A DNA stretch of 64,000 nucleotides. It comes from a virus. Its lineage: Duplodnaviria > Caudoviricetes. Position numbers and translations under genes: made by a program. The notes under the pieces are model-generated. The model was not told the origin of the DNA, did no database searches, and worked only from the letters and a program-made list of their open reading frames with translations. The stretch covers positions 63,633 through 127,632 of the IMG/VR virus record IMGVR_UViG_2693430034_000001. One strand, given 5' to 3'. This document shows, piece by piece, positions 3,788-64,000 of this stretch (positions are counted from its first letter, which is position 1; each line of letters opens with the position of its first letter).

Positions 3788-3877
3788 TGTCCCGCTGCCC
3801 GATATCCCGTCGCGACTGGCTCGCCCTGATCGCGATCCTCGAACCAATCCCCTCAACCACCGCCCAAGGTGCGCCCC

Positions 3878-5743: not shown

Positions 5744-6015
5744 TGCTGCCGGCATCCCCTCACCCGTTCGACCCGATGCAGGCTGATCCGGCCATCGTCG
5801 AGTCCCAGGACAACGCGGTCCGCACGACCCGCACGTTCTGCGAACGTGGTCTGGATGCGTTCGAGTTCCGCTGCTCCGAGAGTAACCGACACTACGTCGT
5901 CACCCGGACCGGCGAGGCCGCGCGCTGCTTCGAGTTCGACCAGCTCGTCGCCTTCACCTCGTCCCGCATGATCCAGGCGCTCAACAAGCCTTGGTCGCTA
6001 CCCGGACGGGCCTGA
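5740..6015 (+). CDS. hypothetical protein
   Basis: Overlapping start/stop, GGAGG RBS. Confidence 0.65.
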   Translation: MMLPASPHPFDPMQADPAIVESQDNAVRTTRTFCERGLDAFEFRCSESNRHYVVTRTGEAARCFEFDQLVAFTSSRMIQALNKPWSLPGRA

Positions 6016-6220
6016 TGATCCTGACCGCAAAGACCGAAGGCGCATTCTGTGTCGCCGCCAATCTGCCCTGCTCGCTGCCCTTGGGCGGCTGGCGGGTCGA
6101 TGTCGATCCCGACATGGCACATGCCCTCGATCCCGAGGACTACTTCGAGACCAGCAGGATGACGGCACGCAATACGCCGCACCCGCTTTCACCCACACCC
6201 CATCCCTCATGGAGCGAGAT

Positions 6221-6466
6221 ATGACCGCCCACAAGCGCATCAAGGTGACGGACGATCTGGGCAATGTCGCCTACATCCATCGCAACCAGCTTGGCTGGAC
6301 CTGCACGCTCGCCAACGGCATTCCGGCCAGCTTCTTCTACGCAGTCGGAAATGTCGACGAGACGGCATTTCGATTTCATCTTGAAGATGCTGCTGATGAT
6401 GATGCCCGACTGAACGTCGTCAAGGATCACGCTGGACCTCGCCGAAAGGTGGAGTTCTTCAGCTAA
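6221..6466 (+). CDS. hypothetical protein
   Basis: ORF in operon with GGAG RBS. Confidence 0.6.
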   Translation: MTAHKRIKVTDDLGNVAYIHRNQLGWTCTLANGIPASFFYAVGNVDETAFRFHLEDAADDDARLNVVKDHAGPRRKVEFFS

Positions 6467-6844
6467 CGAGGCCCCGAGGTGTGCAGTAAAGCGGTCTGCA
6501 CACATAGGCAGGGGAAATCCGCAGCGGTCAAAAACTAGGGTCTAGGAGACATGGCGTCCCGCACGCCAGCCGAGGATGACCCGCCATACAGAGAGCAAGA
6601 CGTTCGCGATCCCGGAGAAATGGGTAGCGTATTCATTGGTTGCTGCGACCCAAACGCAGTGGCGAGGCCGGCGCTATCCGGCCATTCAATTCGAGGCATT
6701 GATGCAGAACAAGTTTTTGGCTGCCGCCATCTGGATCGGTCTGGCGCTCTGGTCGTCGAGCGACAACACGGGTGTGATCTTCCTGATTTCCTACTCGTGT
6801 CTGCTGATCGGATACAAGTTCGGCAAGGCCAACGCTGACTAGCT

Positions 6845-6912
6845 TTCGTCCCCCGCCGTGTAGCGCCTGCCTTGCGTGATACGGCACGCCGCACATGCGG
6901 ACACGGTGGGGG
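6845..6912 (+). ncRNA. structured RNA motif, copy 1
   Basis: Closing stem CCCCCGCCGTG/CACGGTGGGGG enclosing GCGTG-ATACGG-CACGC and CGCA-CA-TGCG hairpins. Confidence 0.6.
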
Positions 6913-7064
6913 TCGTCACTAAATTCAACTGCCACGGAGAAAGACAATGAAGTAAGCGACCCCGCCTAGATGACACAGCACGGACGACCTTTATGACCGG
7001 AGCAGCCGGGAGCGACCGGACCCAATGCACGACCAGCGGCGTGCCAACCAATCCGCTGGAGCTA

Positions 7065-7137
7065 TTCGTCCCTCACCGTGACTGCCTGCCTTGCGTCATA
7101 CGGGACGCCGCATTTGCGGACACGGTGAGGGATTGAA
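7065..7137 (+). ncRNA. structured RNA motif, copy 2
   Basis: Closing stem CCCTCACCGTG/CACGGTGAGGG enclosing GCGTC-ATACGG-GACGC and CGCA-TT-TGCG. Compensatory changes relative to copy 1. Confidence 0.6.
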
Positions 7138-7352
7138 CGAAATGGGAGGGCGGCAGGCCGCCCACAAAAGCGAGAGGCTGATCCCGGCTCGCGCCCTGCT
7201 GCTTCCCCGAAGGAAGTAGTCGTCGGTTGGAGGCAGACCTGCCGTCAGATACCCCAAGCTCTGATGGTGGTGGAGAGAGAACCTCGCGAACCGACTGCAA
7301 TTTACGCCAGAGGTGCGCCTTGTGGCTTGTTTGAATGCGAATGAGGAATGAG

Positions 7353-7751
7353 ATGACCGACAGATCGACCATCCACGCCATCCTCGTGGCGGCGCGCAAG
7401 CGCATCGAGAACCCTGCCAATTGGTGTCAGGAGTGGCACTTCCTTTTCACGGACGGCACTCCCTGGCTCTGGTCCTCCGTGATCACAGAGTCTGGATACC
7501 TGCTTCCTGGCCCGGAACAGTTGGCCTACGTCCGAACCAATGTCGCCCGATGCTGCGCTGACGGCGCGATCCTGCTGGAAGTTTTGAACGATCAATCGCA
7601 GGCCTACATCGAGGCTGAGGACATCATGCGTACCGAGGCCCAGCGCCTCTACGGCATGACCTATTCCAAGGTCAACGACAGCGAGGACGGTCACGCCAAG
7701 GTGCTGAAGGTGTTCGACGCGGCAATCGCCTGGGCATCGGAAGCAGAATGA
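7353..7751 (+). CDS. DUF6197-like phage protein (paralog 2)
   Basis: RIENPANWCQ...CCADGAI...YSKVND..GHAKVL motif shared with the 5171 ORF. Confidence 0.7.
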   Translation: MTDRSTIHAILVAARKRIENPANWCQEWHFLFTDGTPWLWSSVITESGYLLPGPEQLAYVRTNVARCCADGAILLEVLNDQSQAYIEAEDIMRTEAQRLYGMTYSKVNDSEDGHAKVLKVFDAAIAWASEAE

Positions 7752-7926
7752 ACCCCTTCGAATTTTACGACGCCGGTTACCTCGCCGGCCTCGAAGGCGA
7801 TGACGCATGCCCGCATCTCGCCTTCACCCTTCCCTGGCTCTGGTGGCGCACCGGCAACTTCGTCGGTCATCACACCATGTGCTCGCAACTGGAAGCCATC
7901 GCGCTCCTATTCGAACAGGACTGAGC

Positions 7927-8157
7927 ATGACCAAGCGCAAGAACCAGCCCGAGACGAATGTCGAGTTCGTCACCCGCCTCATCGAGTTCAGCAACTACGG
8001 ACCGTTGGCGCAGCTCTTCATCCTCGAAGCCATCCGCAACTGGGCAGACCTCGTCGCCAAAACCGAACCGGCAAAGGTCGATACGCCAATGATCAGCGGC
8101 CATGCCTGGGTCGGCGTTGCCCGCGAGATCAAGGCAAAGATTGAGGAGCGTCAATGA
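7927..8157 (+). CDS. hypothetical protein
   Basis: ORF with AGGA RBS in operon. Confidence 0.65.
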   Translation: MTKRKNQPETNVEFVTRLIEFSNYGPLAQLFILEAIRNWADLVAKTEPAKVDTPMISGHAWVGVAREIKAKIEERQ

Positions 8158-11267: not shown

Positions 11268-11342
11268 GCTCCCGTCGTCTATCGGCTAGGACGCCGCCTT
11301 CTCAAGGCGGAAAGGTTGGTTCGATTCCAGCCGGGAGCGCCA
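11268..11342 (+). tRNA. tRNA-Glu (anticodon CTC)
   Basis: Acceptor stem GCTCCCG/CGGGAGC, anticodon arm CCGCC-TTCTCAA-GGCGG, T-loop GTTCGATTC, encoded CCA. Confidence 0.93.
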
Positions 11343-62995: not shown

Positions 62996-64000
62996 CTACT
63001 CAGCGTCTTCGTCGTTGTACACGGCGTTCCCCTCGAGTTGCTCGATGAGATCGACGATATCAGCCGGGTCAACATCGTAGTCGACTGGATCTCCCGCATT
63101 TTCCTCATCTAGCGCGATCTGGTGAAGATCGGGGTCGTCGAGAAGAACCTGCAAGGCTCGAAGCTTCTGTGACAACCGACGACTAACCGAATGATCGATA
63201 CTGCCCAAACCTTTTGGCGTCATCGTTTGAAAGATATGGATGTTAGTTTCCACTCCAGCTGGCAGGCCTAAGCGGTGAATGCGATCAAGCGATTGCAGGT
63301 AATGCGTAGAAACATAGCTGCGATCCAAATAAATCGCTTCGTGGCATACACGATGCAGGCTAATTCCCTCGCCAGCGGCGGCGGGGTTGGCGAGCATAAC
63401 TTGGCATAGGGGATCGCTGTGGAATCTGTGAAGACGCCCTTCACGAGTTGCGGGATCGGATGGCTCTCCACTCGGCACCGCTCCGTATAGCGAAACCGGA
63501 TTCAAGTCCGCTAACATGTTCTCCATTTGCTGAATTGTATCAGTGAAGATTGTCCAAATAACCGACTTCTTACCTTCCTTCGCCAATGAGCGTGCCATGT
63601 CTGCAACCGCTCGCATTTTCGTAGACGCGCCTCGGCGAGAACCTGATCAACAATTCCAGAATCCAGATTGATCACATCGTCCGTAATCGACCGGAGTGCT
63701 AGTACCGGATTGGAAGAAAGCTGAAGGAGGCGCATGACCGATTTTTTTTGCGCCTATAATATCTATGCGGGATTCGGTTCGAAGCGTGCTGAATTGGCGC
63801 AATGCCTCGTCTCGGACGATGCTGTAGAGAACCATCTGTCCTTTCGCCATGGGAATATGGACGAAACTTCGATTGGGCTTCGGAAGGCCCAACTCTTGTT
63901 TGGTAGTCCTGACGTAAAGTTGTCCCAGGACCTGACGCGGGGTAATCCCTGCCCGATTTGGAAACCGAGCCCCGCTCCCGGCCACAAGAAATCCAATTGA
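62996..64000 (-). CDS. SNF2-family helicase, C-terminal part (runs off window, frameshifts near 63620 and 63745)
   Basis: YVRTTK..L.LP, RLLQLSSNP, K.VIWT.F, ANPAAAGEGISL and QSLDRIHRLG motifs spread across three frames. Confidence 0.8.

Follow-up and report, generated by a model that had tools for sequence, protein, structure and literature searches.

The stretch of DNA analyzed here, referred to as the window, comprises 64,000 nt of one strand of the IMG/VR virus record IMGVR_UViG_2693430034_000001 (positions 63,633 to 127,632) and carries on its + strand two copies of a hairpin element, copy 1 at 6850-6912 and copy 2 at 7070-7131. The element is an undescribed RNA family of ~63 nt with a narrow distribution, in a small group of large Bradyrhizobium phages. 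Its closing and apical stems appear to need only to pair, and its core appears to be constrained in sequence. We tentatively interpret it as a cis-acting intercistronic processing and/or stability hairpin that would be recognized through the invariant core, an interpretation that we regard as possible rather than probable. A preliminary description of this DNA had drawn attention to the repeat but had not recognized the much larger structured non-coding locus in which the element is a single module.

The two copies are offset by 220 nt, and the sequence facts given in the preliminary description, including this spacing and stem differences that preserve pairing, are all as it stated them. Helix P1 is formed by CCCCCGCCGTG (6850-6860) and CACGGTGGGGG (6902-6912) in copy 1 and by CCCTCACCGTG (7070-7080) and CACGGTGAGGG (7121-7131) in copy 2, with C-G replaced by T-A and G-U replaced by A-U. 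Helix P2 is GCGTG/CACGC (6874-6878/6885-6889) around the apical loop AUACGG (6879-6884) in copy 1 and GCGTC/GACGC (7093-7097/7104-7108) around ATACGG in copy 2, and the linker GCCTGCCTT is the same in both. The loop, which had been described as invariant, is so between the two copies in the window but not across the family, where it becomes ATTCGG in contig L048 and ACACGG in record G431. Similarly, the complementary GGCAGGC that had been noted downstream is present at 7152-7158, where it sits in a local hairpin of its own (GGGCGG-CAGG-CCGCCC), but it is not a conserved partner because it is confined to the window, with GGCGGGC in its place in contig L037. An exact 13-mer from the core occurs in the window only at these two sites, and a 25-nt core pattern has only two sites in the 8,339,215-bp genome, the reversed control giving 0 matches. 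In a covariance-model search of the same 8.34-Mb genome, copy 1 scored 102.1 bits and copy 2 scored 89.8 bits; two weak matches (E-values of 0.13 and 2) were also returned, the better of which pairs poorly, and the search revealed no further copies in the host genome outside the prophage. The minimum free energies (MFE) of copies 1 and 2 are -43.1 and -42.2 kcal/mol (z = -3.76 and -6.75), and none of 200 shuffled sequences folded as well. Because the core is unique to both sites, the pattern controls are empty, and the folds surpass those of the shuffles, the repeat is more than a chance match.

In every copy, the MFE structure is one irregular hairpin, or rod, of about 22-24 bp, in which three small internal loops part four helices: the closing stem, a pair of 3-bp helices, and an apical helix of 5 bp. 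P1 has 11 bp and is extended by a U-A pair in most copies, giving a GC-rich closing stem of 11-12 bp; it is followed inward by an A,G/G internal loop, the helix CGC/GCG, a C/CAU loop, the helix UGC/GCA, and a CUU/C loop, and the top of the rod comprises the 5 bp of P2 and a 6-nt apical loop of the form A-N-N-C-G-G. This differs from the three-helix architecture that had been proposed earlier, since MFE folding, constrained folding, and RNAalifold all give the rod, the last with 24 pairs from nine sequences. The third helix as it had been drawn, CGCA-CA-TGCG, has a hairpin loop of 2 nt and cannot form. The best possible P3 has 3 bp and a 4-nt loop, and in the constrained folds this three-way structure was 4.9-7.8 kcal/mol worse in 8/8 copies than the rod, for which the energies range from -33 to -41 kcal/mol. 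Because the inner helices never vary, covariation gives no means of distinguishing the rod from a three-way junction, and the rod is best described as a thermodynamic preference rather than a proven fold.

Selection on pairing was assessed in an alignment of nine distinct sequences, from which L036, L121/G135, L124, and L125 had been excluded as duplicates of L010, L048, L005, and L062, respectively; all nine come from one phage group and are mutually dependent. The rod is paired in 99.0% of 198 cells as compared with 91.9% in column shuffles (0/500 shuffles reach the observed value), five pairs are changed on both sides (a number reached by 2/500 shuffles), and the covariation score is 0.239 as compared with 0.101 (0/500). 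These shuffle counts overstate the significance because the sequences are related. A control free of this weakness, in which the 3' partners were slid by 1-3 columns, reduced pairing to 22-58%. Homologs thus keep the pairing, in agreement with the earlier proposal that the structure is under selection. In P1, the pair at position 4 is C-G or U-A, that at position 5 is C-G or U-G, that at position 6 is G-U, A-U, G-C, or U-A, and that at position 8 is C-G, A-U, or G-C; in P2, position 3 is G-C or A-U and position 5 is G-C or C-G.

In six of the eight copies compared, the 41-nt core between the P1 strands is identical at 41/41 positions, whereas P1 of the same six copies differs at up to 8/22 positions and the adjacent structured block of these phages (block A, see below) is only 58-77% identical. 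If copy 2 of the window is omitted, 9/22 columns of P1 and 3/41 columns of the core are variable. The near invariance of these internal 41 nt therefore suggests that something reads the core specifically. With respect to the strand, G-U or U-G occurs at three pairs, namely alignment columns 16/68 (five sequences), 15/69 (one sequence), and 25/60 (one sequence), and such wobbles fit the + strand only because they become A·C mismatches on the other strand. The neighboring genes are co-directional with the element in every locus examined (the window, phage BDU-MI-1, and G431), and, together, wobbles and gene orientation point to a + strand RNA. The reverse strands of copies 1 and 2 fold to -39.0 and -37.4 kcal/mol, so that the + strand is better by 4-5 kcal/mol. 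Some reading frames are open over a 79-nt stretch in most copies, but a coding explanation was rejected, as it does not fit the paired distant substitutions and the unrelated flanks.

Seven further distinct copies were found beyond the window, in BDU-MI-1, in IMG/VR contigs, and in one metagenome contig (L037). The first of these was identified by blastn on phage records as a single copy in Bradyrhizobium phage BDU-MI-1 (KY940711; 121,342 bp; host B. diazoefficiens USDA110), where it occupies an intergenic gap in a one-directional array of small genes, all of them hypothetical. Exact-pattern scans gave the copies in IMG/VR contigs L005, L009, and L010 (119-122 kb) and L048 (95 kb) and that in metagenome contig L037, and covariance model R1 gave a more divergent copy, scoring 74.9 bits, in G431 (the record of L035). 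From the stretches compared, L036 is apparently the same sequence as L010, and G135 the same as L048. There is a single locus in each of W01, G061, G062, G063, G429, and G431, and the window genome alone has two copies. No match to the element was obtained by model search in G064 (98% complete) or G430 (62% complete). The phages that carry the family are ~95-122 kb long and belong to a small group of Bradyrhizobium phages and prophages, four of the records being classed as proviruses by IMG/VR; their downstream genes include rIIA/rIIB-like genes, a helicase, and a ribonucleotide reductase. Elsewhere in the genus the element is rare. Model R2 detected it in 1/150 other genomes, and pieces of the surrounding region were present in 4/400 genomes, of which only G135 has the element. 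A DNA search of 60 relatives, an exact-pattern scan of a plasmid collection, and a search for the locus with a single protein gave no matches. The 23 stretches of genome contigs that matched the pattern were attributed to chance, none having the P1 helix, as were three of six matches in viral contigs (L006-L008), and three new contigs from an alignment-based search (L126-L128) have neither the element nor the patterns of blocks A and B in the 7-20 kb examined of each. The searches of whole collections used exact patterns only, and divergent relatives may be missed by them.

The novelty claimed for the element was upheld by comparison with Rfam 15, no family of which matches it. At the gathering score, the whole window yielded one tRNA only; in region 6700-7350, with E-values up to 10 allowed, the best match scored 17.3 bits against a cut-off of 40, and there was no ribozyme, riboswitch, C4, or small RNA match. 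Region 6350-6760 gave nothing useful, and eight homologous loci gave 0 matches. Searches of the literature on BDU-MI-1, which is mentioned in a hot-spring survey, and on small RNAs of Bradyrhizobium prophages yielded nothing on the element.

The element occurs in four genomic contexts. (i) In window copy 2, BDU-MI-1, L005, L009, L010, and L037, it starts 10 nt past the 3' end of a pseudoknot that is described below; in L005 it also lies ~10 nt ahead of a GGAG and a GTG start codon. (ii) Window copy 1 starts 7 nt past the TAG stop codon (6840-6842) of a small open reading frame (ORF) of 46 codons. (iii) In L048/G135, the element follows a third conserved block, block C. (iv) In G431, it is located 7 nt past the stop codon of an ordinary 117-aa ORF, 5.2 kb from the block B of that record. 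At comparable sites it can be absent. L034/G167 and L046 share with L005 both the pseudoknot and the family of the downstream gene but lack the element, G380 has another sequence of 26-28 nt in its place, and between the homologs of two G431 genes there is no element in either the window (3788-3868) or G064. On these comparisons, the element is an autonomous, optional module.

The two copies in the window are not equivalent. Copy 1 is identical across the element to the copies of L005 and L037, and its core is the canonical one, shared with five other copies. Copy 2 is the outlier of the family; it differs from the L005 and L037 copies at 10 positions and departs from the canonical core at 7/41 positions, with all seven changes preserving the structure and with pairing fully kept. 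The pair is therefore not a fresh tandem duplication. By eye, the left flank of copy 1, CGCTGACTAGCTTTCGT, resembles the L005 sequence CCGCTGGAGCTTTTCGT, which consists of the 3' end of the pseudoknot and the linker. These similarities suggest that recombination between phage lineages, rather than a recent local duplication, brought the two copies together in the window.

The surrounding region, 6467-7334, comprises ~870 nt with only the 46-aa ORF and is set within a tightly packed array of + strand genes. It is a chain of conserved RNA-like modules, one of which is copy 2 of the element. Block A (6468-6685, + strand), which has its start precisely at the upstream stop codon, is a structured RNA block of ~220-250 nt. 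It contains several hairpins and, enclosing a variable insert, one long-range helix. Among nine block A sequences, 44 pairs are predicted, and 11 of these have compensatory changes. Its first hairpin (6480-6505) contains a stop triplet (TAA, TAG, or TGA) in the loop (6488-6492 in the window; alignment columns 20-26) in 9/9 phages, and the upstream ORF of L034, as judged by eye, apparently runs into this hairpin and ends there. The space between blocks A and B is occupied by variable cargo. In the window this is the ORF at 6702-6842 (+ strand), which encodes a hydrophobic protein of 46 residues (MQNKFLAAAIW...) without a Pfam match; BDU-MI-1 has three small ORFs at this site, L046 has other ORFs, L037 has ~200 nt without a real ORF, and L048/G135 have no cargo, leaving ~600 nt of contiguous non-coding sequence. 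A conserved, very basic ORF of 46-47 aa, MKKRK...SPIARDLRTPKYKPR(I/V)VPNKK..., is found in L005 (6236-6376, - strand), L010, L034, and L040, with differences that are mostly synonymous by eye. A likeness of the 47-aa basic ORF to ArfA was considered and dropped, there being no Pfam, PHROG, or NCBIfam match.

Block B opens with a Shine-Dalgarno-like site and a mini-ORF (6936-6955, + strand), consisting of GGAG (identified by eye), a 7-nt spacer, and ATG AAG TAA. The mini-ORF, ATGAAG(AAG)T(A/G)A, with two or three codons and a GGAG spacer of 7-9 nt, is found in 11/12 of the block B loci listed; among these loci, it was not looked for in L048, where ATGAAGTGA lies elsewhere. It is retained even where no upstream ORF needs a stop. 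The TGA and TAA at the mini-ORF provide stops in two frames, and one or the other terminates the upstream ORF, depending on the phage. Next is a CCGG-rich hairpin region (6995-7021, + strand; GACCGG...GAGCGACCGGAC), conserved in 12/12 of the loci listed, which is followed by a predicted H-type pseudoknot (7027-7059, + strand). Stem S1 of the pseudoknot pairs GCACG (7027-7031) with CGTGC (7040-7044), and stem S2 pairs CCAGCGG (7033-7039) with CCGCTGG (7053-7059), so that S1 has 5 bp, S2 has 7 bp, L1 has 1 nt, and the A-rich L3 has 8 nt in the window (CAACCAAT) and 8-10 nt across relatives. In 10 phages, S1 takes the forms GCACG, GCCCG, GCGCG, GCCTG, and GTGCG, each with a matching partner. The pseudoknot is paired in 99.2% of cells in 10 sequences, with four pairs changed on both sides (reached by 1/500 shuffles) and a covariation score of 0.215 as compared with 0.074. 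In relatives that lack the hairpin element, the pseudoknot is ~20 nt ahead of the next start codon.

Block C (7134-7334, + strand) contains the hairpin CUGCUUCC-CCGAA-GGAAGUAG and a GCTTGTTTGAATGC motif that precedes the next gene start at 7335. It is common to L037, L010, L040, L052, and L055 (the last two from G380), and, by eye, homologous sequence precedes the element in L048. G380 has near-identical copies of blocks B and C (L052 and L055) at 3.03 Mb and 5.17 Mb that differ in the sequence preceding them. The genes that flank the locus in the window, at 6209-6466 (85 aa) and 7335-7751 (138 aa, DUF6197), have no homolog in six related phage records, so that conservation is stronger in the non-coding blocks than in the surrounding genes. 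A separate motif, GAGGTG(C/T)GCCTTG..G(G/C)CTTG(T/C)TTGAA.GCAAA, stands before the starts of different genes (window 7310-7342; L004 3848-3880; L034, L046, and L005). The window has one full copy, and block A likewise starts with a portion of the motif, CCCGAGGTGTGC. A role as a phage promoter or in the initiation of translation is possible. A tRNA-Glu (CTC) gene is located at 11268-11342 (+ strand), inside the phage region and 4 kb downstream of the locus.

According to the interpretation that we favor, the element would be transcribed in the sense direction as part of rightward, probably early, transcripts of the small genes. The rod would then be read by a double-strand-specific endonuclease of the RNase III type or by a sequence-specific RNA-binding protein, and this recognition would set a protected 3' end of the upstream message and insulate that message from the sequence that follows. 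Cleavage or binding and the effect on expression are putative steps in this scheme. The intercistronic placing recurs in two unrelated contexts, in which the element starts 7 nt past a stop codon (window copy 1 and G431), and an irregular duplex of 23-24 bp is in the size class of known phage RNase III sites. Several observations weigh against this interpretation. Transcription is itself something that we infer. RNase III sites are numerous in the known phages that use them, whereas here there are one or two per genome of ~120 kb. Recognition by RNase III is mostly structural, and a nearly invariant core of 41 nt is therefore unexplained by RNase III alone. Since close relatives lack the element, including G064 at 98% completeness, basic gene expression does not depend on it. 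No candidate for a binding protein emerged when six element-bearing records were compared with G064; the 3-4 ORFs that co-occur with the element are not RNA-related and lie near contig ends, one being nucleoside deoxyribosyltransferase-like, and the comparison rests on one solid negative genome. In addition, the 596-nt contiguous stretch of L048/G135 folds better than its shuffles on both strands, with z values of -3.16 for sense and -2.45 for antisense.

Other functions must be weighed against a processing or stability hairpin, and a small share of the probability falls on none of those considered here. One, which we consider doubtful though conceivable, is that the element is a stable small RNA, cut from a polycistronic transcript and acting in trans as an antisense regulator of the P1 c4 or P4 CI kind or as a decoy or sponge for a host or defense protein, with the invariant loops as its contact surface. 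An invariant core enclosed by a freely covarying closing stem is the pattern of a molecule recognized through its loops, and a patchy, optional presence among close relatives is typical of accessory functions in an arms race. The region is also hypervariable, as is seen from the lack of homologs of the 85-aa and 138-aa flanking genes. A possible antisense site is present in block A, where AAGGCAGG, the complement of the invariant CCUGCCUU, follows hairpin A1 in 7/9 phages. However, phages that lack the element (L034 and L046) retain this site as well, and it is broken in L048 (AAGGCUGG) and L040 (AAGGCAAGG), while CCUGCCUU is unchanged in L048 and in the phage of L040. There is therefore no covariation, and the complementarity of CCUGCCUU and AAGGCAGG is probably not functional. 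Moreover, CCUGCC is mostly paired in the rod fold, complements of the core strands occur in the host genome at the level of the reversed control (6+6 versus 3+4 and 25+20 versus 25+22), and neither a promoter or terminator of its own nor an Rfam match to C4 or another small RNA was found. It is unlikely that the element is instead a signal in transcription, either a terminator or attenuator without a U-run, resembling the PeSL stem-loops of T4-type phages (a sigma-70-type promoter plus a stem-loop), or a cis antiterminator like HK022 put, which sits a short way past an early promoter and acts on RNA polymerase. A very stable GC-rich hairpin directly past stop codons would suit such a role, and PeSL stem-loops with G/C tracts are described as terminating transcription and flanking variable ORFans (PMC2839356), much as the conserved non-coding blocks here flank variable small ORFs. 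Yet no U-run follows P1 in any of nine copies (a T-run was sought in the 8 nt 3' of P1), a terminator scan did not return the element, and no promoter-like site was called at it, nor any + strand sigma-70-consensus site in 6000-8000. Genomes of the present family have one or two copies rather than the ~50 per genome described for PeSLs (PMC2839356), a generic terminator needs no invariant 41-nt core, and the close relatives without the element argue against a role like that of put. The intrinsic (Rho-independent) class of terminators was rejected, the hairpin being present but a U-run following 0/9 copies and the terminator scan being empty at this position.

A reading without any RNA function, that the element is a small mobile or recombination-prone DNA hairpin, REPIN- or MITE-like (miniature inverted-repeat transposable element) or a PeSL-like linker, conserved because of recent spread, seems to us distinctly unlikely. 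It would account for the clean presence and absence at orthologous sites and for the variable position relative to the other blocks. By eye, the insertion in G431 (L062 1583-1680) has CCCATCCC(C) to its left and CCCATCCCG to its right, of which the empty site in G064 (L091 10168-10257) has one copy; this repeat, observed a single time and within C-rich sequence, may be a target duplication. Window copy 1 has TCGT on either side, and there are mosaic joints at the ends of the element, as in L037, which combines an element of the copy 1 type with a 3' flank of the copy 2 type. The pattern of conservation speaks against mobility, because variability is greatest at the ends (P1) and conservation greatest in the interior, opposite to what transposon inverted repeats show, and because the changes in P1 are compensated, including by G-U wobbles that fit one strand only. 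The host genome has no other copies, only one in 150 other genomes of the genus has the element, no transposase is linked to it, and the repeat-flanked site in G431 is the one convincing case. Least probable, and in our view very improbable, is a new small self-cleaving ribozyme or ligand-binding aptamer. The invariant core, covarying stems, length of 60-70 nt, and sporadic occurrence as one or two copies in phage intergenic regions would be in keeping with such a molecule, and two CGC triplets are alternative pairing partners for GCG at 6897-6899, so that the rod and three-way alternatives might constitute a conformational switch. On the other side, no Rfam ribozyme or riboswitch matched even at E-values up to 10, the favored fold is a plain rod, and inspection of the flanks by eye gave no conserved partner with which the loops might form a pseudoknot. 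A riboswitch in particular is unlikely because the upstream and downstream genes differ at every locus, leaving no regulon logic, and because there is no expression platform. More broadly, the hairpin may be a functional RNA of a new small catalytic or ligand- or protein-binding class or may be one domain of a new multi-domain phage RNA of ~0.6-0.9 kb, comprising block A, the mini-ORF, the H-type pseudoknot, the rod, and block C, which are contiguous and free of ORFs in G135/L048 and L037. This, too, we hold to be unlikely. Were the multi-domain alternative true, small ORF cassettes would have been inserted into the RNA elsewhere, and non-coding RNA would be the conserved cargo of a hypervariable locus. 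The modules are, however, shuffled, lost, or split by small ORFs between relatives, and they therefore resemble a string of separate elements rather than one fold.

Among known systems, the element would work most like the intercistronic RNase III or stability hairpins of phages, whereas its surroundings appear to evolve most like ORFan cassettes flanked by PeSLs. Phage RNase III sites, such as the R sites of T7 and sib of lambda, are irregular duplexes of about two turns with internal loops, lie between cistrons, are read in the sense direction, and have no U-tract. The rod has a corresponding duplex of 22-24 pairs and an intercistronic position 7 nt past stop codons, its cleavage being putative, and it differs in having one or two copies per genome, an invariant core, and an optional presence among close relatives. 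The P1 c4 and P4 CI antisense RNAs resemble the element in length (~65-77 nt) and in their long closing stem, and they share with it a position within a longer sense transcript, putative for the element, and short complementary sites in the same region, which here are candidates. In the present case, by contrast, there is no Rfam C4 match, the block A site does not covary and is kept where the element is absent, and the complementary stretch of the element is paired in the favored fold. Repetitive extragenic palindromic (REP) sequences and REPINs are also long imperfect hairpins just past stop codons, with compensated stem changes and variable presence, but they number tens to hundreds per host genome, whereas the element has 0 copies outside the prophage and no linked RAYT-type gene. 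Assignment to the REP, REPIN, or MITE classes was rejected for want of dispersed copies. The flanks and ends point both ways, with a repeat-flanked site in G431 and a 4-nt repeat at window copy 1 but with ends less conserved than the interior. Integron attC sites were likewise rejected by eye, all copies having the ends CCC(C/T)C... and ...G(G/A)GGG rather than RYYYAAC...GTTRRRY. The whole locus of 0.6-0.9 kb is reminiscent of ROOL and GOLLD, with which it shares a prophage location, length, multiple non-coding domains, a pseudoknot, and a tRNA gene 4 kb away; it differs in that Rfam matched neither the window nor the eight homologous loci to these families. With PeSLs (PMC2839356), the locus shares a conserved intergenic stem-loop with G/C tracts, variable small ORFs, a hyperplastic region, mosaic joints, and rIIA/rIIB-like genes. 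It differs from PeSLs in that the sigma-70-consensus scan found no adjacent promoter-like site, in its one or two copies, and in its invariant, asymmetric core of 41 nt. Identification as a PeSL was rejected because of the missing promoter and the low copy number.

The reach of these findings is narrow, extending to a handful of phages of one genus. Within it, phages that naturally have or lack the hairpin at one and the same site are ready-made controls, and BDU-MI-1 on Bradyrhizobium diazoefficiens USDA110 provides a cultivable system with one copy. Structured RNAs of phages are poorly catalogued, and this locus adds a cleanly delimited hairpin, an H-type pseudoknot, and a block of ~220 nt, all of them outside Rfam. 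The RNA modules are conserved across phages that share no flanking protein genes, which makes the RNA look like the component under selection in a hypervariable early region.

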